A stretch of DNA of 64,000 nt from Bdellovibrionales bacterium. GTDB taxonomy: Bacteria > Bdellovibrionota > Bdellovibrionia > Bdellovibrionales > JAUICD01. The notes beneath the pieces are model-generated. The model was not told the DNA's origin. It did not search any database and saw only the letters and a program-made list of their open reading frames with translations. The position numbers and the translations under genes are program-made. Shown one piece after another: positions 12,685 through 53,884 of the stretch (its first letter is position 1; each line of letters opens with the position of its first letter). Location: NCBI GenBank assembly GCA_965197425.1, contig CBDANC010000012.1, positions 1-64,000 on the forward strand, given 5' to 3'.

Positions 12685-12781
12685 AAGGTCTTCCGAATCA
12701 AGCCAATAAGATGGATTGGCGAAATGTAAGACGGAGTCTAAATGTAGCCAAGACATCTTTTGGCCGAGTGGATGCCCAGCT
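12685..12781 (-). repeat. Modular hairpin repeat, frame A with cargo C3
   Basis: Reverse-complement ends AAGGTCTTCCG ... CCGAGTGGATGCCCAGCT. Confidence 0.9.
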
Positions 12782-12974
12782 ATACACATGTCATCAAACT
12801 CATCTCCACTCACTAAGACCAAGGTCCGTTTAGCCTCTGGATATTAGCTGACAATTTTTGTAAACCTTAGTTATCATCTAACAGATGCTAGTGACAATTT
12901 TTGTCAACGCCGCTGGGGTGTTATGTTAAGGCATGTCGTATGTGAAGAGTCAAACTTAGAGGGTTATAGAGGTA

Positions 12975-13676
12975 ATGGAAAGTATTTCTACAGTTGAAAC
13001 ATTAATTCAGCAAAACAAGACTTTAGCTTGTAAGGTGGTAGCTCATTCTAAAAAAGTTAATTCTCTTTACGAAATTAATGAAGCTATAAAAAAATTAAGC
13101 TCTGATTTGTCAAAGGAAAATGAAACTTTAAAAGCCGAAAGTGCTATGCAAAAAGAAGAAATTGTCAAGCTTTCCAGAGAAGTAAGTACTTTGAACTTTC
13201 GGCTTTCTGAGGCTGAAAAAAATTATGTGATTGTGTCTTCAGATTATAAAAAAAAATGTGAAGAGCTTACTAATTTGGAGAGGATTTTTGGTAAAAAACT
13301 TGGCCTGCTAGAGAGATTTTTAAAGAGAGTAAATAGGTGGGTTAAACCGCATATATCAGGACTTAAAATTAAAAATAAAGAGCTGACAGACAAGGTTAGA
13401 CTAGACATAAGAAAAATATCTGATCTAAAAACTAACATAGAATCAATGAGCAAATATATTGCTGATCTGTCCAAACAAAAAAATAAAGAGTTATTAACCT
13501 TAGAAAATGAACTAAAGGATAAAAATAACGAGCTTGAAATACAAAATGATGAATTAAAAAAAGAAAAACAAGAATTACTAGCACAGCTTGAGAAAAAAGA
13601 AATTCGCCTCAAAAGTAATGCAGAGCAGATAACAGTTCTAAAAAACAACCTTATCAAACTGTACAGAAAACATTAA
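12975..13676 (+). CDS. Coiled-coil hypothetical protein
   Basis: 233 aa, K/E/L-rich heptad character, GAGG RBS. Confidence 0.7.
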   Translation: MESISTVETLIQQNKTLACKVVAHSKKVNSLYEINEAIKKLSSDLSKENETLKAESAMQKEEIVKLSREVSTLNFRLSEAEKNYVIVSSDYKKKCEELTNLERIFGKKLGLLERFLKRVNRWVKPHISGLKIKNKELTDKVRLDIRKISDLKTNIESMSKYIADLSKQKNKELLTLENELKDKNNELEIQNDELKKEKQELLAQLEKKEIRLKSNAEQITVLKNNLIKLYRKH

Positions 13677-13807
13677 AGGTGAGCTTAATGAGGCAAAAAT
13701 AAGGAGGCTCCGCCTACTTTGGTTCAATTGGCTCACGGGATAAACCTTTATATTATCCAATTGGATGAACCTCCTTTGCAGTCGGTTTTTTTGCCTGATG
13801 GCTCCTT
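13676..13807 (-). repeat. Modular hairpin repeat, frame B with cargo C4-C5-C2
   Basis: Reverse complement matches 11225-11350 with module C5 in place of one C4. Confidence 0.9.
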
Positions 13808-13989
13808 CCTGGTCTAACTAAGGCTAATACCAACGCTTGTTGTATATTTACTTGTTTTATCACTAAAAAATTGCCACTTACCTACTCTTTCTTTGTACCC
13901 CGAGTATATTCATTATGTTGTTGATTGATGTAGATAAAGTGTTAAGTTTGCAAATTCATGTTAGATTGCGCTTTGAGATTTGGGGTGAT

Positions 13990-16167
13990 ATGATTAGAGA
14001 AGATATAACAAACCTAAGCTCTGCTCAACTTAAAGGCGTGACTATTTTAGATAAGCCAGTGGTTGTATTTGCTGGAGCTGGCTCTGGCAAAACCAGGGTT
14101 CTTACTCATAGAATTGCAAATATTATTGATAAAGGTTTAGCTAAACCTCATGAAGTGTTGGGTATTACATTTACCAATAAGGCAGCAAAAGAGATGTCTG
14201 AAAGAGTGTTTAGTTTATTAGCCACCTCTGGTACCCAGGTAAATCCCAGAGATATGTGGATTAGCACCTTCCATGCTTTTGGTGCAAGAATCTTGCGAGA
14301 GCATGCGTCTTTAATTGGTTACGACACTTTTACAATTTTAGACAAAGCAGATCAGCTATCTCAAATAAAAAAAGTAATGAATAAACTAGATATATCTAAC
14401 AAGGTATTTGAACCAAAATCAGTTTTGGAACAAATTAATAAGGCCAAGAGACTTTGTTTGGATTCTTATAAATTCGAAGAACAGTTTCCTTCTCGTGATA
14501 AAAGATTCTTTAAAATTTATGAACAATACGAGAGAGATATGTTTGAAAGTAAAAGCATGGATTTTGCGGACTTGTTATACCAATTGATGCTTTTGTTCGA
14601 AAACTCTGACATTTTGGATAAATATAAAAATCAGTTTAAATTCATCAATGTCGATGAATATCAAGATACTAATAGAATACAGTACCTGTTATTAAAAAAA
14701 CTTTTAGGCAGTAATAACAAAATTTTTGTTGTAGGTGATGAAGATCAATCTATCTATAGCTGGCGTGGAGCTGACATTGAAAATATTTTGGGCCTACAAG
14801 AAGATTTTCCAGACATTGAAGTAATTAAGCTGGAAGAAAATTATAGGTCTACACAAACAATAGTTTCTGCTGCCTCCAGTTTGATATCTAAAAACACCAT
14901 AAGAACTGAAAAATCTATTTTTTCTAACAAAGGCATTGGAGATCTAATTAGCGTTAGATTACTAGATAATGAATATGAGGAAGGAAGATTGGTTGCAAGT
15001 CAAATAACTTCTTTAGTTAATGAAGGGTTTGGTTACGAAGACTTCGCAATTTTTTACAGAACACATGCTCAATCTAGGGTTTTAGAAGAAAAGTTAATGC
15101 AATTTGATATCCCTTACAGAATTGTTGGAGGTATGAGGTTTTATGAAAGAAAAGAAATAAAAGATATAGTAGCTTATTTTAGATTAGCATTAAACCCAGA
15201 TGACGATGTGTCTTTTATGAGAGGCATTGGTTTAAAAAGAGGTGTGGGTTCTACTACATTAGATAAATTGAGCCAAATAGCCTTACAAAAAAAGACTTCA
15301 CTTATAAAGGCTAGCTTGTATTGTATTGAAAAAAATCTATTTAGATCTAACACTATTAATAATTTAACCTCATTTGTTTCTTTAATTTCATCTCTTCAAG
15401 AATTTAATAGATCTCTTATTGATTTGTATGATGCTATTTTAGATAAAACTAATTTTTTGGAAAATTTAAGAAGAGAAGATACCGTCGAATCGAGAACCAG
15501 AATAGAAAATCTAGAAGAATTTAGAAATGTAATAAATCAATTTGAAGAAAGGTTTCATAGTGAAAATAATGACAGCTCTTCTATTTTACAGCAATTTTTA
15601 GAAGAAATTGTTTTAGTATATACTGATACTAACAGAAGTGGTGATTCTAGATATGTGTCTCTTATGACCTTACATAGTTCAAAGGGGTTAGAGTTTCTCA
15701 ATGTTTTTATAGTGGGGATGGAGGAAAATGTATTTCCAGGGATTATACCAATAACCTCACTTGATACTTTTGAGATAGAAGAAGAGAGGCGACTTTGTTA
15801 TGTAGGGATGACTAGGGCTTGTGAAAAGTTGTGGTTTACTCATGCAAAATGCAGAAGAACAAATGCAAAAATTGTATATAACAATCCTAGCAGATTTATA
15901 GAAGAAATACCTGATAAATACTTGGACAATCCAACAATATATTTTTCAAAGAAAAATTTTAAAAGACCAAGTGTTTACAAAAAAGAACACGATGGGGATT
16001 ATAGACAAGATGGTGTAATTGAAAAAGGTGTGAGGGTTATACATCCTGTGTTTGGCCAGGGAAAAGTATTAAAGCTAGAAGCTAGTGGACAAAAGATATC
16101 AGTGTTATTTGATGATAGCTCTGTTAGAAAATTCATGCTCAAGTATACAGATTTAAAGCTTTTATGA
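13990..16167 (+). CDS. uvrD: UvrD/PcrA-family ATP-dependent DNA helicase
   Basis: AGAGSGKT, TFTNKAA, VDEYQD, GDEDQSIY, HSSKGLEF, EERRLCYV; ATG at 13990 preferred over 13915. Confidence 0.93.
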   Translation: MIREDITNLSSAQLKGVTILDKPVVVFAGAGSGKTRVLTHRIANIIDKGLAKPHEVLGITFTNKAAKEMSERVFSLLATSGTQVNPRDMWISTFHAFGARILREHASLIGYDTFTILDKADQLSQIKKVMNKLDISNKVFEPKSVLEQINKAKRLCLDSYKFEEQFPSRDKRFFKIYEQYERDMFESKSMDFADLLYQLMLLFENSDILDKYKNQFKFINVDEYQDTNRIQYLLLKKLLGSNNKIFVVGDEDQSIYSWRGADIENILGLQEDFPDIEVIKLEENYRSTQTIVSAASSLISKNTIRTEKSIFSNKGIGDLISVRLLDNEYEEGRLVASQITSLVNEGFGYEDFAIFYRTHAQSRVLEEKLMQFDIPYRIVGGMRFYERKEIKDIVAYFRLALNPDDDVSFMRGIGLKRGVGSTTLDKLSQIALQKKTSLIKASLYCIEKNLFRSNTINNLTSFVSLISSLQEFNRSLIDLYDAILDKTNFLENLRREDTVESRTRIENLEEFRNVINQFEERFHSENNDSSSILQQFLEEIVLVYTDTNRSGDSRYVSLMTLHSSKGLEFLNVFIVGMEENVFPGIIPITSLDTFEIEEERRLCYVGMTRACEKLWFTHAKCRRTNAKIVYNNPSRFIEEIPDKYLDNPTIYFSKKNFKRPSVYKKEHDGDYRQDGVIEKGVRVIHPVFGQGKVLKLEASGQKISVLFDDSSVRKFMLKYTDLKLL

Positions 16168-16268
16168 TATTCAAAAAAATGCCATTTCAATAATATCACC
16201 TGGTTTAAACTGCAAAAAATAGTTGACTTGCGGGTATAGAGAGAATTAGGTAGTTTTGAGGTTTATTT

Positions 16269-16808
16269 ATGTCTAAAAAGGTTGTTATTAAAGCTATTGT
16301 TTTGGTTTCTGGCCTTGTTTTGATTATCTGGGCTATTATTGCCCTTCAGGGCAATTCTGAAGATCTTACGGATAGAAATGAGTACATTTCTGAAAGAAAT
16401 ACGAGAATATGCAGATATGACGTTAGAGAGGTAAGAATTTCAAAGCCTGAAGGTTCTACTGTGGCTTTTAAGAAAATGGGCAATATTTGGGATGGCGGTA
16501 ACCTTTCAGATGAATTTATTAAAACTCAGCTAGAAGAATTTTGTAACTTAAAAGTAGAAGAAGAAGCCGACTTAGAACGACTCAAAGGTGATTTGGAGTG
16601 GATTGAGGATTTAGAGGTAGTGTTTGTAGATGGTTCTAGTATACATGCGACACTGAGCCAAAATGGTATCATTCAGGTTGGCATTAGACACTACTTTGCT
16701 CCATCTTTATTAAAGTTGATCCAAGGTTATGAAGGAAATATCCCAGATGTGAATCTAGAACCAGAACAAATGGAAGATCAAACCGACGATCAGGCTACTG
16801 ACGAATAG
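16269..16808 (+). CDS. Hypothetical membrane-anchored protein
   Basis: N-terminal TM helix, acidic tail, GAGG RBS. Confidence 0.65.
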   Translation: MSKKVVIKAIVLVSGLVLIIWAIIALQGNSEDLTDRNEYISERNTRICRYDVREVRISKPEGSTVAFKKMGNIWDGGNLSDEFIKTQLEEFCNLKVEEEADLERLKGDLEWIEDLEVVFVDGSSIHATLSQNGIIQVGIRHYFAPSLLKLIQGYEGNIPDVNLEPEQMEDQTDDQATDE

Positions 16809-16810
16809 AA

Positions 16811-17374
16811 CTATTTTTCCCAAAGTATGTCTTCTACACCCTCTAGCTTATTGAAATATCTAGCTAGAGTGAAAAAGTAGTCACTTAATCTATTTAGAAA
16901 TTTTATTATAATGCTATTTTGGCTTTCCACTCCAACTGCTAGTGTTTCTGCTCTTCTACAAGTTACCCTGCATATGTGAGATAGAGAAGATAATGTTGAT
17001 CCTCCTGGGAGAATAAAGTTTTTTAGTGGTTGAAGCTCTGCTTGTATTTTATCAATTTGTTCCTCTAATTCTAAGACCCATGTTTCGTTAAGTTTAGGTA
17101 GAGAAATTCTAGCTGGTGACACCAGTGGTAAAGGATCATCACAAGCCAGGTGGCTTCCTATTGTAAAAAGCCTGTGTTGTATATTTACTAATATGGTTTT
17201 TTGCATATTGTCTGCATATTTTGTTTCTATTAGATTTGAAATTAATAATCCAATATAAGAGTTGAGTTCATCAACTGCACCGTATGTGATTACTCTTGCG
17301 TGACATTTTTTTACTACCTTACCAGTAACAAGTCTTGTGTCTCCTGTGTCTCCTTTTTTGGTATATATTTTCAT
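16811..17374 (-). CDS. ATP:cob(I)alamin adenosyltransferase (PduO type)
   Basis: KIYTKKGDTG, YGAVDELNS, FILPGG, CRRAE, LNRLSDYFF. Confidence 0.92.
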   Translation of the reverse strand: MKIYTKKGDTGDTRLVTGKVVKKCHARVITYGAVDELNSYIGLLISNLIETKYADNMQKTILVNIQHRLFTIGSHLACDDPLPLVSPARISLPKLNETWVLELEEQIDKIQAELQPLKNFILPGGSTLSSLSHICRVTCRRAETLAVGVESQNSIIIKFLNRLSDYFFTLARYFNKLEGVEDILWEK

Positions 17375-17420
17375 GTTTTCCTTGTATAAGAATGCGGCCT
17401 ATTATAGAAGCCTAAAGCAT

Positions 17421-17485
17421 AGCTGGGCAACCACTAGGTCAAAAAGTAAACAAGTTTACTTTATTGACCTCGCTAGGAAGACCTT
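17421..17485 (+). repeat. Modular hairpin repeat, frame A with cargo C1
   Basis: AGCTGGGCAACCACTAGG...GGAAGACCTT; stem AGGTCAA/TTGACCT. Confidence 0.9.
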
Positions 17486-17490
17486 TGGAA

Positions 17491-18831
17491 ATGAAAGTAT
17501 TAAAACAAATTATCAAGTCTTTATCTAGCATAAAAATAGCAGTGATCACAATAGTAGCATTAATTGTTGTGTTCGCCTGGGGTACATTTGTTGAATCTAG
17601 ATATGATGCAAGAACTGCACAGAATGTGGTGTATCACACAAACTTTACATACCTTACCATGGCTCTTTTGGTAGTAAATTTGCTATTTTCTATGTTTATA
17701 AAATTCCCATGGAAAAAAAAGCACATGCCTTTCTTGTTAGCACATATAGGTTTAATTATTATTATTGCGAGTGCTTACTTAGATAGGGTCTTTGGCCTAG
17801 ACGCTTCTATGTCAATAGAAGTTGGCAAAAGCAAAAACTGGGCTTTAACAGAAGATACTTATATAAATGTCTATTATAGTGAGGATGGAAATTTATTTTT
17901 ACCTAATAAAATATCAAGTAAAAAAGTAAATTTTTTTGCTAACCCTCCAGAACAAAAAAAATTATTTGTTGAAGTGGAGAAAGATAAAGTGCAAGTCACA
18001 GACTTTTATCCATATGCAACTTTTGAAAGAAAAATTGAACCTTCCAGCGATAAGATGACAGGCCCTGCTGTAAGGTTTGTGTTGCGGAATCAGTTTGTAA
18101 CTCATTCTGATTGGTTGATTCAAAATGATGATAATGTGGCTTATAAAAAAATAGGGCCTCTTAATGTATTTTTAGATACAAAAAAAAATTCACAAAAAAC
18201 CTCAGAACCTACTTTAACTTTTAGGCCTTTAGATTCTAAAACAATAGAGTATATTATGATGGATGAGGGTATAATAAAAAAGCAGGGTCAAATTAGAACT
18301 GGTATGTCTTTCAAAACTCCCTGGATGGATATGAAGCTTATACTTTTAAAATATATTCCAAATGCCCATGAGACATTTTCTTATACTTTACAGAAAAGTC
18401 CATCTGATCTTACTACTGAAGTTGTGCATGTTAAGTTTAAAGACATATCTAAGTGGATAAGACTTAATAGTTATGAGAAATTTCCGCATGAAAATGGTCT
18501 ATATTTGGTGAGTTATACAAATGATCAGATAGGGGTAGGTTTTGATATGAAGCTTAATGATTTTGTTATAGACAAGTATCCTGGTGGAAGAGCTAAATCT
18601 TATAGAAGTGAAATAGAGGTTGATGGTGATGAATATTCTATATCTATGAATGAACCTTTTAAAAAAAATGGTCTTACTTTTTATCAGGCGAGTTATAGAG
18701 AAAATGAAGAAGGTAAACCGGTTGTGTCTATTCTACAAGTCAATCATGATCCTGGAAGAGAAATAAAATACCTGGGAGCTATTCTATTATCGCTTGGTAT
18801 AGTAATGATGTTTTACAAACGAAAAACTTAG
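17491..18831 (+). CDS. ResB/Ccs1-like cytochrome c biogenesis protein (system II)
   Basis: Three N-terminal TMs with LAHIG, C-terminal ISMNEP/FYQASY/DPG motifs; ATG at 17491 preferred because the TTG at 17464 lies inside the repeat. Confidence 0.8.
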   Translation: MKVLKQIIKSLSSIKIAVITIVALIVVFAWGTFVESRYDARTAQNVVYHTNFTYLTMALLVVNLLFSMFIKFPWKKKHMPFLLAHIGLIIIIASAYLDRVFGLDASMSIEVGKSKNWALTEDTYINVYYSEDGNLFLPNKISSKKVNFFANPPEQKKLFVEVEKDKVQVTDFYPYATFERKIEPSSDKMTGPAVRFVLRNQFVTHSDWLIQNDDNVAYKKIGPLNVFLDTKKNSQKTSEPTLTFRPLDSKTIEYIMMDEGIIKKQGQIRTGMSFKTPWMDMKLILLKYIPNAHETFSYTLQKSPSDLTTEVVHVKFKDISKWIRLNSYEKFPHENGLYLVSYTNDQIGVGFDMKLNDFVIDKYPGGRAKSYRSEIEVDGDEYSISMNEPFKKNGLTFYQASYRENEEGKPVVSILQVNHDPGREIKYLGAILLSLGIVMMFYKRKT

Positions 18832-20421
18832 ATGAGATTTGTTTTAGTATTTTTATTATTGATTAGTTCAAGTATTGCTTTTGGGAATGATGTTAATGCA
18901 TTGCTGGGTAAAATTCCTATTCAATCTGGTGGAAGGGTAAAACCTTTTGATACTTATGCAAAAGAGAGTTTGCGGCTTATACATGGAAAATCAAAATATA
19001 ATGGTAAGCCTGCGGTTGTAGTTGTGTTTACTTGGCTCATTGCACCTAATGAGTGGTATAATGCACAACTGATTGAAATAACTCGTCATGATCTTAAGGA
19101 AAATTTAAATCTAGATGAAAAGAAATACTTTTCGCTAAATGAAATTACCAACTCCTCAAGATTGAGCTTAATTTTACAAGAGTTGCAAAACAAAGTGGAG
19201 GCAAATGAAAAGCTAGATAACTATCAAAAAGCAGTCCAGAGGTTGGACTCTCAGCTTATCACGTTTAATAGTATCTTGTCTGGTAATATGGCGTTTGTTC
19301 CATCTAATAATGCTGACTGGTTACCCATAGCCGGTTCAGACAATGAGATACTGGATTCATTCTCAAACATAGTAGAAGGATTTTCAAAATATTTAAATGA
19401 TGAAACTGCTTATAAACAGTTAGAAGGTTATGTTGATTACTTTATTTTGTTAGTAGGATCAAAGGTTGGTTCTTATCCAAGCAGTAGAATTATAGAAGCA
19501 GAGGTTCATTATAATTCATTTCATCCATTTAGATGGAGCTATATATTTTATCTTTTGTCGAGCATACTTTTTTTAATTTATTTTTCTGCCCAAAAAATCT
19601 CAAAAAATAAGTGGTGGCTAGTTTTTGCTTGGAGTTGTTTGGCACTAGGGTTTTTGTTTAATACTTATGGATTTTTGCTGCGTATCTATTTAACAGGAAG
19701 ACCTCCTGTTTCTAATATGTATGAGAGTGTGATTTGGGTTGCTTGGGGTAGCGTATTTTTTGCTGGTATTTTTGAGTTTTTTAAGAAAGTAAACTACTTT
19801 GCTTTTGCTGCTGTTCTTGTGGGAGTTGTTTGTTTAATTACTGCTGATATTGCTCCGATAGTTCTTGATCCTAGTCTTGAACCATTACAGCCTGTGCTGA
19901 GGAGCAACCTCTGGTTGATAGTTCATGTAATGACTATAACACTTGCATATTCTGCTTTTTTTCTTTCATTTGTACTATCTGATATAGGGCTTTGGTTTTA
20001 TATTAAAAAAAAGAAGGATCAGATGACAAAAATATCTCAGTTTACTTACAGGGCAACACAGCTTGGCGTTGTACTTTTGATAGCAGGTACAATATTAGGT
20101 GGTGTGTGGGCTGATTATTCTTGGGGTAGATTTTGGGGTTGGGATCCTAAGGAAACTTGGGCTTTGATAGCAATTTTAGGTTATGTTGCAGTACTACATA
20201 CAAGGCTTGTGGGTTGGATTAGAAGTTTTGGGTTTCTAGTTACAAATTCATTTTGTTTTTTACTGATCATAATGGCTTGGTACGGTGTGAATTATATATT
20301 AGGAGCGGGACTTCACTCTTATGGGTTTGGAGGTGGTGGTGTTGGATATGTCAGTGCGCTCATATCAATTCAGCTCGTGTATTTATGTTTAGCTCTTAGT
20401 TATAGATATTCCGATAGATAA
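18832..20421 (+). CDS. ccsA: Cytochrome c biogenesis protein CcsA/ResC
   Basis: WWD motif WADYSWGRFWGWDPKETW and GLHSY. Confidence 0.92.
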   Translation: MRFVLVFLLLISSSIAFGNDVNALLGKIPIQSGGRVKPFDTYAKESLRLIHGKSKYNGKPAVVVVFTWLIAPNEWYNAQLIEITRHDLKENLNLDEKKYFSLNEITNSSRLSLILQELQNKVEANEKLDNYQKAVQRLDSQLITFNSILSGNMAFVPSNNADWLPIAGSDNEILDSFSNIVEGFSKYLNDETAYKQLEGYVDYFILLVGSKVGSYPSSRIIEAEVHYNSFHPFRWSYIFYLLSSILFLIYFSAQKISKNKWWLVFAWSCLALGFLFNTYGFLLRIYLTGRPPVSNMYESVIWVAWGSVFFAGIFEFFKKVNYFAFAAVLVGVVCLITADIAPIVLDPSLEPLQPVLRSNLWLIVHVMTITLAYSAFFLSFVLSDIGLWFYIKKKKDQMTKISQFTYRATQLGVVLLIAGTILGGVWADYSWGRFWGWDPKETWALIAILGYVAVLHTRLVGWIRSFGFLVTNSFCFLLIIMAWYGVNYILGAGLHSYGFGGGGVGYVSALISIQLVYLCLALSYRYSDR

Positions 20422-20585
20422 ACCGACCGAAGGGAGGTTCATTCAGTTGGATTGGTATCAATGTCTAAAGCTGGGCAACCACTCGGCCAAAAAAAAAGTA
20501 AGCATAGCCTCCTTATTTTTTGCCTTGTTCGGAAGACCTTGATGTAATTGGAAAACATAAAGACTTATCCCGTAAGCCAATTGGA
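20419..20585 (+). repeat. Repeat mosaic: free C4 module, frame A copy with C2 (20469-20540), then C5-like module
   Basis: AACCGACCGAAGGGAGGTTCAT; AGCTGGGCAACCACTCGG...CGGAAGACCTT; TTATCCCGTAAGCCAATTGG. Confidence 0.85.
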
Positions 20586-20642
20586 TAAATGCGTCAAAAT
20601 TATTGGTTGAATTAAATCTTATTTGATAGACAATGTTCGCTA

Positions 20643-21194
20643 TTGGGACCGATAATTTTAAATTTTATTCTTGTCATTTTTTATGTTCAGATGGCGGGGG
20701 CGTTTTCTTTTGGATATAACAAAGGTTATAAACCAAAGCAAACTTTACCCTATGATCATTCTCTTCATGCTGGAAAGTATCAGATTCCATGCTTAAGCTG
20801 TCATGTTCAGGCTGATAAGAACAGGCATGCAACTGTGCCTAGTTTAAATATTTGCATGAACTGTCATAACGGTGTTGCTATAAATAAACCTGCCGTACAG
20901 ACATTAAGAAAAGCATATGATAAGGGGTATAGCATCCCTTGGTTAAAGGTACATCTGTTACCTGATTTTGTGATGTTTAATCATCAAGCTCATGTGAAGG
21001 CAGACATTCGCTGTCAGACTTGTCATGGAAATATTGAAACTATGAAAGAGGTAGAGCAGAGTTCTGTCCTATCTATGGGTTGGTGTTTAAATTGTCATAG
21101 AAATCCTGAAGATGCCAGAGAGTTTGCTAAGCAAAAAAAACCTGATGGTTCGATAAATCAGGCTCCGGTTAGTTGTGGTACTTGTCATTATTAG
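20643..21194 (+). CDS. actA: Alternative complex III subunit ActA (pentaheme cytochrome c)
   Basis: Five CxxCH motifs (CLSCH, CMNCH, CQTCH, CLNCH, CGTCH). Confidence 0.9.
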   Translation: MGPIILNFILVIFYVQMAGAFSFGYNKGYKPKQTLPYDHSLHAGKYQIPCLSCHVQADKNRHATVPSLNICMNCHNGVAINKPAVQTLRKAYDKGYSIPWLKVHLLPDFVMFNHQAHVKADIRCQTCHGNIETMKEVEQSSVLSMGWCLNCHRNPEDAREFAKQKKPDGSINQAPVSCGTCHY

Positions 21195-21211
21195 ATAGCT
21201 TTGGTGGTATT

Positions 21212-26523: not shown

Positions 26524-26536
26524 AATAGGATAATAA

Positions 26537-42631: not shown

Positions 42632-42677
42632 GTTTATAGAAAGACCTTTATGTAGTAGGATCGGCATCGTATCCAGC

Positions 42678-42746
42678 GCTGGGCAACCACTCGGCAGAAA
42701 AAAATAGGCAGAGCCTCCTTGTTTTCTGCCTCGTTCGGAAGACCTT
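42678..42746 (+). repeat. Modular hairpin repeat, frame A with cargo C2
   Basis: GCTGGGCAACCACTCGG...GTTCGGAAGACCTT; stem GGCAGAAAA/TTTTCTGCC; abuts the comM stop. Confidence 0.92.
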
Positions 42747-44155: not shown

Positions 44156-44182
44156 AGCATTTACCTCACCTCCAGTAAAGTA

Positions 44183-44199
44183 TGCAAATTGTTTGCCAG
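44183..44199 (-). promoter_or_regulatory. Sigma54 -24/-12 promoter of comM
   Basis: Minus strand CTGGCAAACAATTTGCA with exact GG-N10-GC spacing, followed by GGAGGTGAGG RBS. Confidence 0.7.
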
Positions 44200-44338
44200 T
44201 TTAAACTGATAAATTTTCACTTTTAAAGTGATTAAGGTGTTTTAAATTTTAAAACACTACTAGCAAGCTAGGGTTTATGATGTTATTTATTAGATGTTGT
44301 GAACTTGCAATGTTTTCAAATAACACTAAGAGACAAAT

Positions 44339-44950: not shown

Positions 44951-44965
44951 GTTGGCAGGTGGTGT

Positions 44966-46594: not shown

Positions 46595-46764
46595 AACTCT
46601 AGGCTTTTACAAATCAGCTAAAAATATTTGACACGCTAAGACTTAAACTACTTTATAGTTTTTTATATAATTCGAAGGCTGTATTGAGTTTTTTTAATTT
46701 GTTCTTATTTGAGCTTTGTTGTAGAAGGACAGTTTTGAAGAAATAAAATAAATAGGAAAAACAT

Positions 46765-48147
46765 ATGTTGGAAGCAATTGATCAATTTTTAGCTACTGCC
46801 GTAGGTTATGTTTGGAACATACCTCTAGTGGTAGTTTTGATAGGCTCTGGGCTTTTATTTACTTTTTTGCTAAAAGGTGTTCAGTTTACTGCATTTCGAC
46901 ATGCTATTGATATTGTAAGAGGTAAGTTTGATAAAAAATCTGATCCTGGAGAAATAACACACTTTAAAGCATTAACTACTGCACTGTCTGCCACAATTGG
47001 TTTAGGTAATATAGCTGGTGTTGCAGTGGCTATAAACATGGGTGGGCCTGGTGCTTGTTTTTGGATGATGGTAGCTGGCCTGGTTGGTATGGTCACCAAA
47101 TTTTGTGAATGTTCTCTTGCCGTTAAATATAGAAAAGTAGATTCCAACGGCAAGGTTAGGGGTGGCCCTATGTACTATATTCAGATGGGTCTTGGGGATA
47201 AATTTAAACCTCTGGCAATTTTCTTTGCCTTAGCTTGCATGATTGCAACTTTTGGTGCGGGTAACATGTTTCAGACCAATCAAGTTGCAAAGGTTTTGAA
47301 TAGTTACTTTGATATTCCGGTTATATTGACTGGACTTGTCTTAGCCACCGCAACTGGTCTAGTGATTATTGGTGGTATTAAGCGAATAAGTAATGTTACA
47401 GGCTTCTTGGTTCCTTTTATGGGAATTATATATATGGGTGGATCATTATTAATTATTGGTCTTAATGCCTCAGAAATCCCAACTGTGGTAGGCATGATTT
47501 TTGAGGGAGCATTTAGTGGCACTGCTGCTGCAGGTGGCTTTGCTGGTGTTGCTGTAGCTGAGGTTTTAAAACAGGGTGTAAGAAGAGCCTGTTTTTCAAA
47601 TGAAGCCGGGCTTGGTTCTGCCCCAATTGCTCATGCTGCTGCTAGCACAAAAGAACCTATAAGAGAAGGTATCGTAGCTACAATAGGCCCGTTTGTAGAT
47701 ACCGTTGTAATTTGCATGATGACTGCTTCTGTTATACTTCTTTCTGGTGCTTGGCCAGCAGATGCCGGAATTGATGGAGTTGAGCTCACAGCAATGGCAT
47801 TTGACATGTCACTTCCTGGATTTGGAAAATTCTTTGTTCCTATTGCAGTAACTTTGTTTGGGTACTCCACATTGATAAGTTGGGCTTATTATGGGGAAAT
47901 GGCTACAGACTATTTATTTAAAGAAAACAAAACTGTCATGATGATTTATAAATTAGTCTTTTGCATTTTTGCATTTACAGGTGCACTTTGGGCTTTGGGT
48001 CCTGTTCTAAACTTTTCTGATATAATGTTAGGCCTCATGGTTGTACCTAACATAATAGGGGTATGGTTATTATTTCCTAAAATTAAAGCTGAAACTAAAA
48101 GTTACTTTGATAGACTTAAAAAAGGTGAATTCGATAAACCAAACTAA
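46765..48147 (+). CDS. Alanine/glycine:cation symporter (AGCS family)
   Basis: ATIGLGNIAGVA, GGPGA, GGPMYY, FSNEAGLGSAP. Confidence 0.92.
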   Translation: MLEAIDQFLATAVGYVWNIPLVVVLIGSGLLFTFLLKGVQFTAFRHAIDIVRGKFDKKSDPGEITHFKALTTALSATIGLGNIAGVAVAINMGGPGACFWMMVAGLVGMVTKFCECSLAVKYRKVDSNGKVRGGPMYYIQMGLGDKFKPLAIFFALACMIATFGAGNMFQTNQVAKVLNSYFDIPVILTGLVLATATGLVIIGGIKRISNVTGFLVPFMGIIYMGGSLLIIGLNASEIPTVVGMIFEGAFSGTAAAGGFAGVAVAEVLKQGVRRACFSNEAGLGSAPIAHAAASTKEPIREGIVATIGPFVDTVVICMMTASVILLSGAWPADAGIDGVELTAMAFDMSLPGFGKFFVPIAVTLFGYSTLISWAYYGEMATDYLFKENKTVMMIYKLVFCIFAFTGALWALGPVLNFSDIMLGLMVVPNIIGVWLLFPKIKAETKSYFDRLKKGEFDKPN

Positions 48148-48222
48148 TTTGGTAAGCTTGTCACCGAATAATTGGCTTCATTAGGAAGATCTTATAGCAC
48201 CGGGATCAGCATCGTGTTCAAC

Positions 48223-48384
48223 GCTAGGCAACCACTCGGATAAAAACTAACTGGAGTTGTATTAAACCTACAAAGTTGGGCAACCCGCTAGGCCAAAAGG
48301 CAAACAAGTTCACCTTATTGTCCTAGCTTAGAAGACCCTGATGTGAACAAGTCCACTTGTTTTCATCCTCGTTAGGAAGACCTT
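48223..48384 (+). repeat. Nested frame A repeat (inner copy 48274-48339 inside an outer copy)
   Basis: Two left ends (GCTAGGCAACC, AGTTGGGCAACC) followed by two right ends (GAAGACCCT, GGAAGACCTT). Confidence 0.9.
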
Positions 48385-48393
48385 AAGTTTACT

Positions 48394-48723
48394 TTAGTTT
48401 AAATGCTTTGCTACACACTCTTTTATTTTATCATAAGAGATATTGCCTACTAGATTTTCTAATGCCTCACCTTTTTTGAATAAGATTAGTGTTGGAATAC
48501 TTTTAACTCCATATTTAGCAGGGCTATCAGGATTATCATCAATATTCATTTTTTGTACCAAAAGCTTTGGAAACTCAGATGCTATTTGTTCTATCTTTGG
48601 CAGAAGTGCTTTACACGGTCTGCACCAAGATGCCCAGAAATCCACTAAAACACAATCAGACTGTAAGATAACCGATTCAAAATTTGAGTCCTTAACTTCT
48701 GCAATTGCCATTTCTTCCTCCAA
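48394..48723 (-). CDS. trxA: Thioredoxin
   Basis: VDFWASWCRPC, SIPTL. Confidence 0.9.
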   Translation of the reverse strand: MEEEMAIAEVKDSNFESVILQSDCVLVDFWASWCRPCKALLPKIEQIASEFPKLLVQKMNIDDNPDSPAKYGVKSIPTLILFKKGEALENLVGNISYDKIKECVAKHLN

Positions 48724-48763
48724 TAAATTATGTATGTTAATTAAGTCGTATCATGCCTTGCAA

Positions 48764-48790
48764 AGCTGGGCAACACTGAGCCTAAAGATG
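48764..48790 (+). repeat. Truncated frame A left end
   Basis: AGCTGGGCAACACT with no matching right end. Confidence 0.6.
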
Positions 48791-48796
48791 CAAAAA

Positions 48797-49645
48797 TTAT
48801 TTTAAGTTTTCCAACATAAACTGTGGCAACTTAAAAGAAGCTTTGTGTAAATCCAGGTTATAATATTTTAATTCAATATTCTGTATTTTATCCTTTTTTA
48901 AATCTCTAACTGGATGTAAGTTTTTTGATGAAAATGCAAATGACCAAAAACCTGATGTGTAAGTCATATTGTGGTAATTATATATTCTTACTAATTTAAA
49001 AATAGATTGTAGCAAGTTATACATCTTTTTTTGAAATTTAGAGTTATAAAACGGAGATTCAAATTGACTTACTACAATACCATCTTTAGATAGAATACGA
49101 TAAACATTTTTATAAAACTCTTCCCCAAAAAGTGGTACAGAAGGTCCAAAGGGGTCAGTGGAATCTATAATTACAACATCAAAAACTTGATCTGTCTCAT
49201 TTACATATTTATTTCCATCCATAGTTAAAACTTCTACTTTTGGATCATCTAACTTTAAAGAGGTTTGTTTTAAAAATTGTTTAGACGCCTCTAATACCAA
49301 AGGGTCTATTTCTACCAACACACATTTTTCTACACTTTTATGTTTTAAAACCTCTCTTACAGTTCCTCCGTCACCGCCACCTATAACCAAAACATTTTTT
49401 GGATTAGGATGAACAGAGAGAGGTACATGAGTAATCATTTCGTGATAGATAAATTCGTCTCTTTCACAAACCATAATGATACCGTCATTTAACAACATAC
49501 GACCAAACCCTTTGGTCTCTACTACTTCAACATGTTGAAAATCACTTCTTTTAGAATAAAGCACATTATCTACTCTAATTTTGGTTGCAAAAAAATCTTC
49601 ATGTTTTTCTTCAAACCACAGCTCCATTTCTTTCCTGGTGTCCAT
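48797..49645 (-). CDS. speE: Spermidine synthase (polyamine aminopropyltransferase)
   Basis: DEFIYHEM, VLVIGGGDGG, VEID, IIDSTDP. Confidence 0.93.
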   Translation of the reverse strand: MDTRKEMELWFEEKHEDFFATKIRVDNVLYSKRSDFQHVEVVETKGFGRMLLNDGIIMVCERDEFIYHEMITHVPLSVHPNPKNVLVIGGGDGGTVREVLKHKSVEKCVLVEIDPLVLEASKQFLKQTSLKLDDPKVEVLTMDGNKYVNETDQVFDVVIIDSTDPFGPSVPLFGEEFYKNVYRILSKDGIVVSQFESPFYNSKFQKKMYNLLQSIFKLVRIYNYHNMTYTSGFWSFAFSSKNLHPVRDLKKDKIQNIELKYYNLDLHKASFKLPQFMLENLK

Positions 49646-49654
49646 AATGGTTTC

Positions 49655-50584
49655 CTATATACTTAGCCTAGTTGGATTTTTAAAGTGCTTGTCTGGTTTA
49701 AAGAAATTAAAAAATTCTACGCTACAATCTTGAGATATGTTGTGCTGTATTTTTCTTTTATTATCATAGTGCTTTAATTGAGGTATATTTTCTGACTGAA
49801 ATTGTACAATATCAAATGTATCCGGCCTAAATATATCTAAAACCCTATCTATAACAGATTGATATTCTTCATATGATTTAAAAACATAATTAGTTTCAAA
49901 ACTTGCATAAGAAGATAGATCTTCAGGAGTAACATGAAAAGTGTAATATTCTTTATCTTTAATGGCATTTAATGAATACCCAGGAGGATCAAATAAATAA
50001 GAATCTGTTTTAAAGCCTTTTATAATATTATCTAACCCTAAATGCGACACTTGTTTGTTAAAAAAATTAGACTTAGCCTCATTAGATAAGTCTTGCATTA
50101 AAATTTCAAAAGTACCGTTAATTTTATCAAAAGTAAGGTTAGTATCATTATGAAAAAGACACACATGATTTTCATAAATACTACCAAAAATATAAGCCTT
50201 ACCATTTATTATTTTATTTAATCTTTTGGCATCCTGAGTAAAGGTATATTTTTGATCCTTGGGGAACATAGGATTTTTTCTTTCATAAAAGAAATATAAA
50301 ATATTTTCTCTTTTAATTTTTGTAATTAAAAACTCAAAAGTATTTAGTATACAGGTTTTTCCACAAGTTATTATTATAATAGAGTCATCATATACAAACA
50401 TTGAAGATTCAGATAAAAGGTATGCATCAATAAAGTCATTTGAAATGACAGATAATACTTTAGCACCAGATCTTTCTATAGCCTCTTCAAAATAAGCTCT
50501 ACCCCATGATCTTAATTTGCAGTTTTTAGTAAGAAGCTCTAGTTTTTTTTCTGTACCCTCAAAGCTGTTAGGGATAGATAGCAT
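49655..50584 (-). CDS. speD: S-adenosylmethionine decarboxylase proenzyme, eukaryote-like (class 2)
   Basis: FEGTEKKLE, DAYLLSESS, TCG, GYSLN, HVTPE, YASFETN; adjacent to speE. Confidence 0.85.
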   Translation of the reverse strand: MLSIPNSFEGTEKKLELLTKNCKLRSWGRAYFEEAIERSGAKVLSVISNDFIDAYLLSESSMFVYDDSIIIITCGKTCILNTFEFLITKIKRENILYFFYERKNPMFPKDQKYTFTQDAKRLNKIINGKAYIFGSIYENHVCLFHNDTNLTFDKINGTFEILMQDLSNEAKSNFFNKQVSHLGLDNIIKGFKTDSYLFDPPGYSLNAIKDKEYYTFHVTPEDLSSYASFETNYVFKSYEEYQSVIDRVLDIFRPDTFDIVQFQSENIPQLKHYDNKRKIQHNISQDCSVEFFNFFKPDKHFKNPTRLSI

Positions 50585-51160
50585 TTACAGATTTGACTCC
50601 ACAAATTTCCAGTTAACAAGACCCCAAAACGCGTCTATGTATTTGGGCCTGGCATTTCTATAATCTATATAATAGGCGTGTTCCCAAACATCACAGGTAA
50701 GAAGTGGAATGTCATCTCCTGTAATTGGTGTTTTTGCATCAGGAGTGGAAGTCACTTTGAGTTTTCCTTTATTATCTTTAACAAGCCAAGCCCAGCCTGA
50801 GCCAAAAGCAGTAGCGGCGGTCTTTGTAAATAAAGTTTTGAACTCATCAAAAGAACCAAAGTCTGTTTTGATTTTTTCTAAAAGGTCACCTTTAGGTTCC
50901 TTTCCTCCATCAGGACTTAAGCAATTCCAATAAAAAGTATGATTCCAAACTTGAGCTGCGTTATTAAATATCCCACCATCAGATGAACGAATAATATCTA
51001 CAATTTGTTTGTCATCATCAGGGGTATCCTTTATGGCAGCATTAAGCTTATCGACATATGCTTTGTGATGTTTTCCATAGTGATATCCTATGGTCTCCTC
51101 TGAAATATAAGGACTAAGACTTCCAGGATCAAATGGTAAATCTGGTAATGTTACAGACAT
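50585..51160 (-). CDS. sodB: Fe/Mn superoxide dismutase (Fe-type-like)
   Basis: HYGKHH, FNNAAQVWNH, FGSGWAW, DVWEHAYY. Confidence 0.92.
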   Translation of the reverse strand: MSVTLPDLPFDPGSLSPYISEETIGYHYGKHHKAYVDKLNAAIKDTPDDDKQIVDIIRSSDGGIFNNAAQVWNHTFYWNCLSPDGGKEPKGDLLEKIKTDFGSFDEFKTLFTKTAATAFGSGWAWLVKDNKGKLKVTSTPDAKTPITGDDIPLLTCDVWEHAYYIDYRNARPKYIDAFWGLVNWKFVESNL

Positions 51161-51178
51161 TTTAACCTCCTTAAAATG

Positions 51179-51463
51179 CTAATAATCAGGCCCCTCAGGC
51201 CCCCATGTGTTACAAGACTCGGTATTGAATACCAGAGGCGATGACTCTAATACAGATTTAAATAAAAATCGTATATCAGACCATGCTTCTTTTTTAATCA
51301 TATCTATGGGTACTCTTACTACAAATCTTCCCTTTGTAAATAGCAAAATATTATTATCCACCATAATTTCTAAATTATAATCCTTAAGATTCAGGCTATC
51401 TATCACCCTCTGGGCCATTTCAACCTGAATATCGTTTAATTTTTTGTCTACTACTATGCCCAT
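51179..51463 (-). CDS. Hypothetical protein
   Basis: 94-aa ORF directly upstream of sodB on the same strand. Confidence 0.6.
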   Translation of the reverse strand: MGIVVDKKLNDIQVEMAQRVIDSLNLKDYNLEIMVDNNILLFTKGRFVVRVPIDMIKKEAWSDIRFLFKSVLESSPLVFNTESCNTWGPEGPDY

Positions 51464-51509
51464 AAAACCCTAGATTTGATAACACCTGTAGACCAAATTA
51501 GCAATACCA

Positions 51510-51683
51510 AAGGTCTTCCAACGAGGCCAATAAAGTGAACTTGTTTGCTTTTTGATTGAGGATGAGCCTAATGAGGCAAACAAGGGAAGCTTTGCTTTCC
51601 TTGGTTCAATTGGCTCACGGGATAAACCTTTATATTATCCAATTGAAATAACCTCCCTGACGGTCGGTTTTTGTTTAATGGCT
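51510..51683 (-). repeat. Tandem repeat mosaic: partial frame A with C1 (51510-51560) plus frame B with C4-C5-C2 (51561-51683)
   Basis: AAGGTCTTCC end; TTGGTTCAATTGGCTCACGGGATAAACCTTTATATTATCCAATTG is shared with the copy at 13676-13807. Confidence 0.88.
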
Positions 51684-51760
51684 GTTTCAGCTAAGGCATT
51701 GCCCTTTTAAGCTTTCTAGCGTACAATTCGTCTTATAAAAGAACATAAAAAAGGCTACTT

Positions 51761-51931
51761 ATGAAAATACTAGATTTTTTGTTTGGCAAAAAACCCAAAA
51801 TAACCTTTAAACCTGACGGCACAGTTGTACACAAACATAAAAAGGAATATTGGGAAAAATGGAACAACAGATTTCACACACCAGAATATGACTGGAGAAA
51901 CCACTCTGGTCTTAAGAAAATACCAAAGTAA
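51761..51931 (+). CDS. Small hypothetical protein, 56 aa (absent from ORF track)
   Basis: Manual translation MKILDFLFGKKPKITFKPDGTVVHKHKKEYWEKWNNRFHTPEYDWRNHSGLKKIPK; AAGG RBS. Confidence 0.65.
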   Translation: MKILDFLFGKKPKITFKPDGTVVHKHKKEYWEKWNNRFHTPEYDWRNHSGLKKIPK

Positions 51932-51937
51932 TACTTA

Positions 51938-52029
51938 AAGGTGAGCCTAATGAGGCTAATAAGATGGATTGGTGAGACATAGCACGAAGTGCAAGTGAAA
52001 CCAAAACATCTTTTAGCCAAATGGCTCTT
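51938..52029 (-). repeat. Modular hairpin repeat, frame B with cargo C3
   Basis: AAGGTGAGCCTAATGAGGCTAA...TTAGCCAAATGGCTC. Confidence 0.88.
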
Positions 52030-52129
52030 TCGAAAACAGATCTCCGTAAACCTCATGTTTTGTCGATAAACCAGAGGTAGAAATAATATCATGTTTCCCG
52101 CGTCTTTCTCACGACCGATCCCGTTTCAC

Positions 52130-52290
52130 AAGGTCTTCCTAACAAGGATAAAAACAAGTGGACTTGTTTACATCAAGGTCTTCTAAGCTAGGACAATAAG
52201 GTGAACTTGTTTGCCTTTTGGCCTAGCGGGTTGCCCAGCTTTGTAGGTTTAATACAACTCCAGTTAGTTTCACTGAATGGTTGCCCAGCT
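52130..52290 (-). repeat. Nested frame A repeat, inverted near-identical partner of 48223-48384
   Basis: Reverse complement of 52130-52270 matches 48244-48384 with 5 mismatches by manual comparison. Confidence 0.92.
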
Positions 52291-52299
52291 TAACATGCC

Positions 52300-52650
52300 T
52301 CATACAACTTTGCCCGCTAACTCAGTAAGCATTCTAATAGGTCTATACCATTTAAACTGATTAATGTAGTTGACCTCAAATTTTACTTCGTTACTCTCCT
52401 CAATCTTGTTGCTTCCACACATTATTGCGTGCTTAATCCAAGCTGGAGTACGATAGCAAAGCCTAACACTACCTACATGTTTGTTATTTTTTAAAACAAG
52501 ATTTTGTGTATACACTCTGTTATCACTAAGAGTAATATTGACCACTAATCTTTCAGTTGGATGAAGACTAACTCCCTCAACTTCTAACTCAACTACTATG
52601 GATTCTCCCTTAAATTTGGTTGAGTCTATAAATAACGGATTGTTTTTCAC
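52300..52650 (-). CDS. Hypothetical protein coupled to parA-like gene
   Basis: GTGA start/stop overlap with the upstream ParA ORF. Confidence 0.6.
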   Translation of the reverse strand: MKNNPLFIDSTKFKGESIVVELEVEGVSLHPTERLVVNITLSDNRVYTQNLVLKNNKHVGSVRLCYRTPAWIKHAIMCGSNKIEESNEVKFEVNYINQFKWYRPIRMLTELAGKVV

Positions 52651-53390
52651 TTAATCAATTCCTCAGAAAGCTCATTGTAAGCTTTGGCAGCTTTGTTGGA
52701 TGGTGAGTAGTCTATAATGGGTAAATGTGCATGGTGGGCTTCCTCCACAGCAATAGCATCTGGAATGTAATCTTCAAATATTTTTATACCATAACTGTCT
52801 CTTATTTGAGAAATCACTTGAGTTGCAATCTTCCTGCGTTTATATCTGGTAATTACAATTCCCTTAACATCAATCTTGTGACCAAGCCCTGTCTTTAAGT
52901 TGTTGATAGTCTGTAAGATTAAATCAATTCCCTTAGCAGAAAAGTATTCAGGACAAATTGGAATAATAATCTCTTTAGATGCCATCAAGGCATTGACTGT
53001 TATTAAACCAAGACTCGGAGGACAATCTATTATAATAGCGTCATAACGCCTCTTTATTGGATCCAACTTTTTTTTCAAAAGTCTCTCCCTTCCAAAATGA
53101 GTTGCAATTTGAATGTCCAAGCCAGATAACATAATTTCAGAGGGAATCACATCAAACCCAAATTTTTCAGACTTCACAATGGCCTGATCAACCGATAGCT
53201 TGTTAACTAAGACATCATAGATAGTATGATCAAACTCCTGATCACCGAACACAGCTTTAGTTGCAGAAGACTGAGGGTCTAAGTCAATCATCAATACTTT
53301 TAAGTTTTTCTTAGCCCAAACCGCAGCGACATTAACAGTAGTAGTGGTCTTAGCCACACCACCTTTTTGATTTATAACCGAAAAAATCAT
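52647..53390 (-). CDS. ParA/Soj-family ATPase (no adjacent parB)
   Basis: NQKGGVAKTTT, IDLDPQ, IIDCPPSLG. Confidence 0.9.
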   Translation of the reverse strand: MIFSVINQKGGVAKTTTTVNVAAVWAKKNLKVLMIDLDPQSSATKAVFGDQEFDHTIYDVLVNKLSVDQAIVKSEKFGFDVIPSEIMLSGLDIQIATHFGRERLLKKKLDPIKRRYDAIIIDCPPSLGLITVNALMASKEIIIPICPEYFSAKGIDLILQTINNLKTGLGHKIDVKGIVITRYKRRKIATQVISQIRDSYGIKIFEDYIPDAIAVEEAHHAHLPIIDYSPSNKAAKAYNELSEELIK

Positions 53391-53637
53391 ATACCACCCA
53401 CAAAACAATTACAGTCAAAGTTACAGGCCCTAAGACCTAGCCTGAGCTTTGCAGTAAACAAGCCCAAATTAATCAACCCGGTCTGTAACTTATTTTAAAA
53501 CAGCTATAAATGTTATTCTATATAAATCGATACAGCAATATTTAACGCTACCATGCTGTACCCATATGCAGTAAACCTACCCTCTAGTCTTGAAATTATA
53601 AAAAAAGATAAGTTGTATAAAATCTTAATTATAGTGA

Positions 53638-53884
53638 AAGGTCTTCCTAGCGAGGTCAACAAGATGGATTGGTGAAACACAACACGAAGTGCAAGTGAAA
53701 CCAAAACATCTTTTGACCGAGTGGATGCCCAGTTCAAAGATAAGCCTAACGAGACCAAATAAATGGACTGGTGCAACGAGTGTACAAAGTACAAGTGAAA
53801 CCAGAACATTTTTTGGCCAAGTGGCTCCTTCCCGGTGGACCTCACAGCCAATACCCTACCACTACACATGTCATCAAACTCATC
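53638..53884 (-). repeat. Tandem frame A+C3 (53638-53733) and frame B+C3 (53737-53830) with shared flank module (53863-53884)
   Basis: Both end types visible; TACACATGTCATCAAACTCATC is identical to 12783-12804. Confidence 0.9.

Follow-up and report, generated by a model that had tools for sequence, protein, structure and literature searches.

What are the intergenic hairpins that recur in a 64,000-nucleotide stretch of a Bdellovibrionales genome (assembly GCA_965197425.1, contig CBDANC010000012.1, positions 1 to 64,000; hereafter the window), with stems that differ in sequence from copy to copy and yet stay paired, and in which molecule do they fold? An initial annotation of the window had proposed that these hairpins covary, that their fold is under selection and that it may act as single-stranded DNA. 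We find that they are the cargo parts of a larger modular repeat, present in 144 units across the source genome, that covariation of their stems is real, and that one strand bears purine motifs that persist unpaired. The repeats are likely selfish mobile elements that would move as folded single-stranded DNA.

The source genome (G000; 1.6 Mb, 99% complete) was scanned for the motifs of the repeat, which gave 120 loci with at least two motifs; parsing of these yielded 153 candidates running from the module L to the module R, nine of which were removed by eye as chance or degenerate matches. Six of the 153 candidates lie inside long open reading frames (ORFs), five of them among the dropped rows, and nearly all units are outside. 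The order within a unit is a spacer of 8-9 nucleotides, J, L, the cargo hairpin and R, where L is GCTGGGCAACC or GGAGCC and R is GGAAGACCTT or GGCTCACCTT. Cargo hairpins fall into the classes C1a-d, C2 and C3, and the short ones are GC-rich with T runs on both strands. Units are found single, head to tail and nested; the modules are mosaic across units, and some arrays contain identical neighbors. At two sites (C14 near 347147 and 309801) the C2 cargo is inverted between its outer stems relative to other copies. For comparison we used a genome of the same genus (G001; 93% complete), which is syntenic with G000 at a DNA identity of about 73%, one further genome of the same family (G002) and two additional members of that family (G003 and G004).

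Matched changes in the stems are found genome-wide. On a parsimony tree of the 43 distinct C3 units in G000 (two further long composites were left out of the C3 trees), 20 single-branch swaps from one Watson-Crick pair to another fall in 10 of the 23 pairs, and 30 such swaps fall in 16 of the 23 pairs among the 85 distinct units in G001. Double changes on the same branch number 21.0 in G000 C3 and 34.4 in G001 for true partners, while shuffling of the partners gives 2.6 and 3.5 and never, in 3000 shuffles, reaches the observed values; the pair sets were taken from the same sequences, and the trees are approximate since modules recombine. A pair counter applied to 44 G001 units and the four C3 units of the window found 92% of the cells paired and two-sided changes in 22 of 27 pairs, pairing being inflated in G001 by a parser that demanded paired outermost arms. 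None of 500 shuffles reached 92%, and slid partners gave 32-44%. The four window units fold with z scores of -2.4 to -5.5 with DNA parameters and -3.3 to -6.5 with RNA parameters, on both strands. The flanking motifs covary as well: in G000, L is combined with R in 129 cases, the alternative L2 with R2 in eight, and five are mixed, while in G001 GCACAAC occurs mostly with GAAGGGC and GGGCAAC with GAAGACC. These results confirm that the observed covariation is real and genome-wide, so that the matched changes described in the initial annotation exceed chance by tree swaps, shuffles and slid partners, and the outer-stem, apical and inner-stem words that it quoted are all present in their units. 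Its account of the apical C3 hairpin leaves out one copy: the three quoted ones (AGAC-GGA-GTCT, GCAC-GAA-GTGC and GTAC-AAA-GTAC) do pair, and the fourth, ACAC-GAA-GTGC at 53682, has an A.C mismatch.

The unpaired positions carry a second signal. We assigned to each unit the strand predicted to fold, which begins with AAGG. Mismatch runs on this strand are purine-purine, with distinct G.A over C.T contexts of 53/0 in G000 C3, 24/1 in C1 and 102/4 in G001, though these contexts do not all represent independent events. There is also a 3x3 internal loop that, apart from a few exceptions, has G-N-A on either side; in the form R-N-A/R-N-A (R, purine) both of its sides are retained in 41 of 43 G000 C3 units and in 77 of 85 G001 units. 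In G000, its 5' side is counted as GAA 28 times, GTA four times, AAA twice, and GAG and GGA once each; its 3' side is GTA 25 times, GAA 14 times, GCA twice and GGA once. GNA/GNA loops form zipper-like motifs in DNA. The commonest outer stem has a tandem GA/AG block with C-G, T-G or T-A flanks, and such a block is described as sheared G.A pairs in DNA in a nuclear magnetic resonance study (PMC10085684, available text).

The apical loop is likewise constrained. A triloop of the form R-N-A closed by C-G is found in 41 of 42 G000 C3 units and 55 of 56 G001 units, the G001 count leaving aside 29 of the 85 distinct units that have no C-G-closed triloop (many have tetraloops); closure by C-G is seen in 49 of 49 cases in G000 C3. 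Parsimony changes at triloop positions 1, 2 and 3 number 9, 8 and 1 in G000 C3 and 12, 18 and 0 in G001. The third base changed 1, 0 and 0 times in G000 C3, G001 and C1a/b, compared with 17, 30 and 7 changes at the first two positions (binomial P = 4e-4, 6e-7 and 0.016, with an assumed neutral break rate of 0.444). Strict GNA triloops account for only 22 of 42 in G000 C3, 29 of 56 in G001 and 4 of 26 in C1a/b, and almost all others are A-N-A, a loop with sheared A.A closure. The rule C-GNA-G given in the initial annotation is therefore replaced by C-RNA-G: closure by C-G and the A at the third position stand, strict GNA makes up about half, one cargo carries its loop on the opposite strand, and GTAC-AAA-GTAC, listed under the old heading, does not have a GNA loop. 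Taken together, the one-sided mismatches, the retained internal loop and the near-fixed third loop base indicate, at the level of sequence, that the fold of one strand is under selection, as the annotation had held; template switching alone, which it had named as the outcome that would speak against selection, leaves the persistence of unpaired purine motifs on one strand unexplained.

The units are also mobile on an evolutionary scale, as judged from comparison of the two genomes. The G001 family is a diverged homologous one of 92 units, mostly located at sites different from those in G000. Of 206 syntenic gaps compared, a unit is present in G000 alone in 60 and in G001 alone in 10; four gaps hold one in each genome, three times in opposite orientation, and 132 are free of units in both. 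G000 has 18 dispersed pairs of C3 units that are at least 97% alike. Two array-skipping joints in related-strain contigs (48193-48393 and 53592-53889, run X3) were not counted as empty sites, for the first spans unknown letters and the second element sequence. By crude ORF calls, units between co-directional genes are oriented 41:25 in G000 (P = 0.06) and 13:20 in G001 (P = 0.3); divergent genes flank 23 of 109 loci in G000 and 15 of 66 in G001. With orientation random to genes and many loci in divergent gaps, the polarity belongs to the element itself and is not set by host transcripts.

The two ends of the unit are not alike. One is fixed and sharp, ends in CCTT, and is usually followed by N-A: the second base is A in 93 of 127 terminal ends in G000 and 64 of 86 in G001, compared with about 0.29 in the genome. 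The flank begins with TAT, TAG, TAA, GAT, AAT or others, and only the second base is clearly biased; the three bases after CCTT resemble the element's own spacer, and bases 4-8 do not. A stop or start codon is often only a few bases away from the fixed end, and in G001 the loci show a mild excess in convergent gaps (18 of 66 loci versus 84 of 614 gaps). The other end is ragged and often starts inside the preceding unit (left ends with a remnant or nested unit, 48 of 63 and 43 of 60 under a loose filter), and no target motif was found in the left flank. There is no general target duplication, the longest word shared by the flanks being 4.3 versus 4.0 shuffled in one genome and 4.1 versus 4.1 in the other; in two filled/empty pairs, duplications of 11 bp (G000, C13:71581) and 8 bp (C13:253236) match the element's own junction. 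At C13:253091-254191 in G000, a gene that is hemB-like by eye is extended in frame at its 5' end by a repeat unit, and the corresponding site in G001 is empty.

How far does the family extend? BLAST of one window array against 40 relatives gave no match. The G000 and G001 families have TGGGCAAC, GAAGACCTT and the C3 hairpin core in common, the four C3 units of the window align to G001 units, and among 61 genomes of the order one has the core pattern of the G001 hairpin. In a 140-kb sample, G002 has closely spaced repeats built on similar lines, in which covarying stems enclose C-AGA-G and G-N-N-A loops and AGA is the main triloop; homology of this family to that of G000 is plausible. A 140-kb sample of G004 holds a few G002-like copies, and no motif rose above chance-like counts in 172 kb of G003. 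A loose pattern scan of genome contigs gave mostly chance matches; of two with Bdellovibrionales titles, L161 contains a real unit and L142 is coding sequence. We found no account of such repeats in the literature on Bdellovibrio-like bacteria, a search that was thin in subscription journals and supplements, and the accessible part of a coevolution-mining preprint (bioRxiv 10.64898/2026.09.22.753630) makes no mention of Bdellovibrio. The present analysis contributes numbers for the covariation, the non-canonical motifs kept on one strand and a correction of the loop rule.

Among described systems, the repeats function most like REPINs. They are dispersed, intergenic, imperfect hairpins that form tandem arrays and have lineage-specific sequence, and like REP, REPIN and BIME repeats, which are mobilized by the Y1 HUH enzyme RAYT, they vary in inner sequence while remaining paired. 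REPINs occur in arrays of up to five and are thought, in the available part of PMC3337134, to be non-autonomous and to fold as single strands. Unlike them, the units described here have no REP doublet, keep non-canonical purine motifs, are accompanied by no Y1 or RAYT gene in G000-G002, and are polar units that extend beyond the hairpin into spacer and J. REPs also require GTAG or GTGG 0-2 nucleotides 5' of the hairpin foot (PMC6006769, available text), a foot absent here, where the folded strand begins with AAGG and the other strand has a variable J before L. Integron attC sites, proven single-stranded substrates with strand skew and a GAA loop (PMC5027507, available text), resemble the units in low sequence conservation with a kept fold, one more stable strand, purine-rich unpaired parts with a purine skew in every class of unit, the GAA loop and, only in G001, an excess of G.T. 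They differ in that no RYYYAAC/GTTRRRY pair is present here: in the common L type, GTT does occur on the 3' arm of the fold but lies opposite CTTC, and the L variants GGGCAAC, GCACAAC, GGTTAAC and those without AAC face GAAGACC, GAAGGGC or GAAAACC. Nor is there a tyrosine recombinase, and the units lie between housekeeping genes rather than after cassettes. With IS91 and ISCR, the repeats share one fixed and one imprecise end and the lack of a target duplication; IS91 moves through a single-stranded intermediate of one strand (PMC13181058, available text). The CTTG or GTTC target of IS91 is missing beside the fixed end, which shows only the weak N-A preference. Pneumococcal BOX elements are, like these repeats, modular subunits in variable intergenic arrays. 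The present units nonetheless lack the TA or fixed-length duplication of BOX-like and miniature inverted-repeat elements, true inverted repeats at the two termini of the unit (L and R leave the spacer and J outside) and an IS630 enzyme. The repeats fail a defining test of each of REPIN, attC and IS91 and are filed under none of them.

We then sought a mobilizing enzyme by searching G000-G004 with named family profiles rather than whole proteomes against family libraries. Neither Y1_Tnp nor RAYT gave any match in G000, G001 or G002, and the same holds for RVT_1. The tyrosine recombinase PF00589 (control positive in 14 of 14), IS110, IS630, Rep_trans and TnpB had no match in G000 or G001, and tyrosine recombinase matches of the XerC/D type occur in G002-G004 only. 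For the recognition by an HUH nuclease or in the manner of attC that the initial annotation had suggested, no support was obtained: no HUH enzyme was found in G000 or G001, and the attC reading fails in both its core sequence and its recombinase. Scans of called ORFs for the HUH motif produced no candidate (nothing in the first, five unconvincing matches in the second), and ORFs flanked by repeats on both sides are ordinary by inspection. DDE_Tnp_1 was rejected as a mobilizer because one gene in G000 (C11) and none in G001 cannot serve both; G004 has 55 such matches, a large insertion sequence expansion, compared with 0-6 in the other four family members. RAYT-like genes in G003 (L093:1408-2143 and L095:1320-2130) were rejected too, as they have their own unrelated inverted palindromes and no homolog in G000 or G001 (best E 0.4). 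A solo serine recombinase is common to G000, G001 and G004 in single copy and to G002 with seven matches; its gene has no flanking repeats in the stretches examined, and in G000 and G001 it lies just upstream of a dCTP deaminase gene. Four-helix-bundle genes (PF05635), some of them beside arrays, were likewise rejected as helpers, with 19 matches in G000 and none in G001. The approximately 19 genes in G000 (C12:183947-184204, C14:346160-346417 and others) are flanked by 7-mer repeats such as (GGCAATC)n, and there are 14 matches in G002, 19 in G004 and none in G003. In four of the G000 genes (C12:103385-103777, C15:352789-353220, C13:208743-209075 and C6:2399-2728) a 66-bp C2 module lies in frame and adds 22 residues, which we take to be similar to the Rickettsia palindromic elements. 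In G001, a set of words around CCGATGGCCGTTCATTTCCTGATGTGTTAGAAT, in 36 copies, has the look of a CRISPR repeat, and two expanded families of 15 and six copies, absent from G000, resemble Rpn-type nucleases by eye.

We consider the best explanation to be that the repeats are non-autonomous mobile elements that spread via a folded single-stranded DNA intermediate handled by some enzyme, a reading to which we give a probability of about one half. The sharp CCTT end, the ragged other end and the lack of a general duplication would be consistent with a single strand being transferred from a defined 5' end and overrunning at its 3' end. The AAGG strand may be released or copied as single-stranded DNA with such a 5' end and then be joined to a target in which a few bases are preferred, by analogy with HUH-type strand transfer in IS91- or REPIN-like elements; arrays and ragged ends would result from overrun into the next unit, recognition or survival of the intermediate would depend on the fold, and the enzyme would act in trans or have been lost. 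Template switching probably makes some of the paired changes in one step, with selection then keeping loops and mismatches. A more speculative proposal, which we regard as doubtful, is that the repeats represent a previously undescribed class of single-stranded mobile element, whose sheared G.A architecture (tandem G.A, GNA/GNA zipper and R-N-A cap) would be recognized free of sequence and which would be moved by a nuclease outside Y1, Y2, reverse transcriptase, IS110 and tyrosine recombinase, or by host replication and repair proteins alone.

Several observations weigh against the folded single-stranded intermediate. No intermediate has been observed, and G000 and G001 have no match for Y1_Tnp, RAYT, Rep_trans, reverse transcriptase, IS110, IS630, TnpB or tyrosine recombinase; the searches for Y2_Tnp and its zinc domain (IS91) gave no match but carry no weight here, because no control genome rose above the cut-off. 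About half of the triloops are A-N-A, and GNA alone among 64 triloops forms the mini-hairpin according to PMC13037366. In C1a/b the R-N-A loop sits on the opposite strand in 26 of 26 cases, with the AAGG-strand bias of the outer stem retained. Background hairpins with C-G-closed triloops have R-N-A on either strand in 361 of 680 and 370 of 706 cases (about 53%), so the presence of such a loop is weak evidence and only its pattern of variation counts. The bias relative to replication is weak in G000 (67:44 by synteny, P = 0.036), and there is no lagging-strand bias in G001 (33:34). The alignment-based covariation test that had been proposed as a check is also divided: the branch and shuffle tests are strong, and an R-scape-like per-pair test at E<0.05 passes only 2/3486, 1/3741 and 0/1711 column pairs, where one of the two passing pairs is well paired and stem pairs occupy many of the top ranks. 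The wobble bias, G.T over A.C, is seen in G001 (42 versus 10 contexts; 56 versus 15 parsimony events) and not in G000 C3 (6 versus 8 contexts; 20 versus 20 events). The AAGG strand is the more stable one in 41 of 44 G000 and 81 of 85 G001 units with RNA parameters, and in 31 of 44 and 70 of 85 with DNA parameters. It is favored under both sets, more so for RNA, and folding models cannot decide between the two molecules.

It is conceivable, though unlikely, that the RNA of the element is the selected fold and that the repeats spread by a reverse transcriptase acting in trans or have a small-RNA role. The higher stability as RNA would suit this, tandem G.A, tandem U.U and G.U pairs stabilize RNA as well, and one fixed and one ragged end are typical of retro-insertion too. 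Most G-started tetraloops in G001 fit GNRA (GTAA in eight, GCAA in three, GGAA in two and GAAA in one), and yet loops of the form G-N-N-A outside GNRA (GGTA, GATA, GACA, GTCA and GCTA) are present, the related G002 family having GGTA, GATA and GACA beside GAAA, GTAA, GAGA and GTGA. Triloops dominate, and a UNCG reading would break the register of the stem. An RNA route is further opposed by the missing RVT_1 matches and by Rfam, which at its gathering score recognized only two tRNAs and no other known family in the window; readings as ribozymes (hepatitis delta virus-like or hammerhead) were set aside for want of conserved partner elements and of any Rfam match. In the available part of PMC13037366, GNA and GNNA loops are stable in DNA, with melting temperatures near 70-76 C, and their RNA counterparts are much less so (39 C for r(GCGAAAGC)). 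DNA is favored over RNA as the probable folding molecule. The single-stranded DNA role raised in the initial annotation survives in so far as a one-strand fold is selected and DNA is favored, and is weakened by the failure of the attC core and of the enzyme signatures.

The host itself could keep the units as terminators or mRNA stabilizers, with the fold selected in read-through mRNA, and the GC-rich short cargos with their T runs, the fixed end near stop or start codons and the enrichment of convergent gaps in G001 point that way. Because the folding strand is not aligned with the flanking genes, many loci lie in divergent gaps and the sites differ between G000 and G001, we hold this to be very improbable; abutment on codons may equally follow from the N-A preference and survival only at gene boundaries. 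Little credence is due as well to a scheme with no selection on the fold, in which arm-to-arm template switching and ordinary recombination shuffle the modules. Some outer arms have indeed been perfected (ATCAAG/CTTGAT replacing tandem G.A), modules are mosaic, array neighbors can be identical, no dedicated enzyme was found and the per-pair test is weak. Switching, however, erases mismatches and leaves loops untouched; in both species the internal loop has nonetheless persisted (41 of 43 and 77 of 85 units), and neither the one-strand purine mismatches nor a fixed third loop base beside two variable ones is accounted for, so that for the long cargo this explanation is largely refuted. A further long shot is movement of double-stranded circles into short look-alike sites, possibly via the solo serine recombinase, with the hairpin secondary. 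It draws on the 11-bp and 8-bp duplications that match the element's junction, on the in-frame C2 module at a site like its own end in four four-helix-bundle genes, and on a recombinase present in all four of G000, G001, G004 and G002. The lack of a general duplication and of repeats around the recombinase genes in the stretches examined speaks against it, and duplex recombination leaves the one-strand motifs unexplained. Overall, the selection on a single-stranded fold inferred in the initial annotation is upheld, its triloop rule is half right, and its enzyme links found no support.

In the window, motif parsing placed the units as follows, the four C3 units being supported by folding as well. 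On the minus strand, a simple L-C1d-R unit (3609-3675; GGCTAAAAA at 3624 and TTTTTAGCC at 3652) adjoins a tRNA gene (3469-3554), and a second (17421-17485; AGGTCAA at 17436 and TTGACCT at 17464) lies at the start of a resB-like gene. The same strand carries a unit with the alternative flanks L2/R2 and the cargo C2 plus C1a (11226-11354; AGGC-ATA-GCCT at 11315), and an L-C1a-R unit (20469-20540) between two pieces of a C2 module (about 20420-20583). At 42637-42746 (minus), an R remnant and J precede L-C1a-R (AGGC-AGA-GCCT at 42706; GGCAGAAAA at 42693 and TTTTCTGCC at 42722), with 7-mer repeats before it from about 42583 and its end at the stop of a Mg-chelatase-like gene. The unit at 48177-48384 (minus) consists of R', J, L, a whole nested unit (48275-48339) and R; an inverted near-copy of its part 48244-48384 (96% over 141 nucleotides) is the nested unit at 52130-52290 (plus).

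The C3 units are all on the plus strand. The first, R-C3-L plus J2 (12685-12801), has the apical hairpin AGAC-GGA-GTCT at 12729-12739 and the inner stem TTGGC/GCCAA at 12716/12747. The R2-C3-L2 unit at 51938-52030 pairs GGCTAA (51954) with TTAGCC (52013) and TTGGT with ACCAA (51969/52000) below its apical GCAC-GAA-GTGC (51982). The R-C3-L unit at 53638-53733 pairs GGTCAA (53654) with TTGACC (53713) and contains the mismatched apical hairpin described above; it is followed in tandem by R2-C3-L2 (53737-53830) and its J modules, to 53881, with GTAC-AAA-GTAC at 53782 and the inner stem CTGGT/ACCAG at 53768/53800. Also on the plus strand are an R2-C1a-C2-L2 unit (13676-13806) that begins at the stop codon of the ORF 12975-13676, and a composite array (51510-51690, end approximate) of R with a C1d-like hairpin, an R2-like motif, C1b and C2. 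The window copy of the solo serine recombinase gene (4669-5388, minus) is a weak candidate enzyme only. Elsewhere in the window, a match to IMPDH/GMP-reductase (1560-2619, minus) is divided between the overlapping ORFs 1560-2261 and 2242-2619, possibly by a frameshift.

Bacterial intergenic repeats often have no known mobilizing enzyme, and whether they act as DNA or RNA can usually not be tested from sequence. Here, two species provide about 130 distinct versions of one long hairpin with one-strand purine motifs, which makes the question testable with a few oligonucleotides. If the repeats do move as folded single-stranded DNA, they would form a natural collection of sheared-G.A DNA structures already tested by evolution and would hint at an unrecognized activity that processes single-stranded DNA; if not, they would be one more well-characterized family of selfish repeats.

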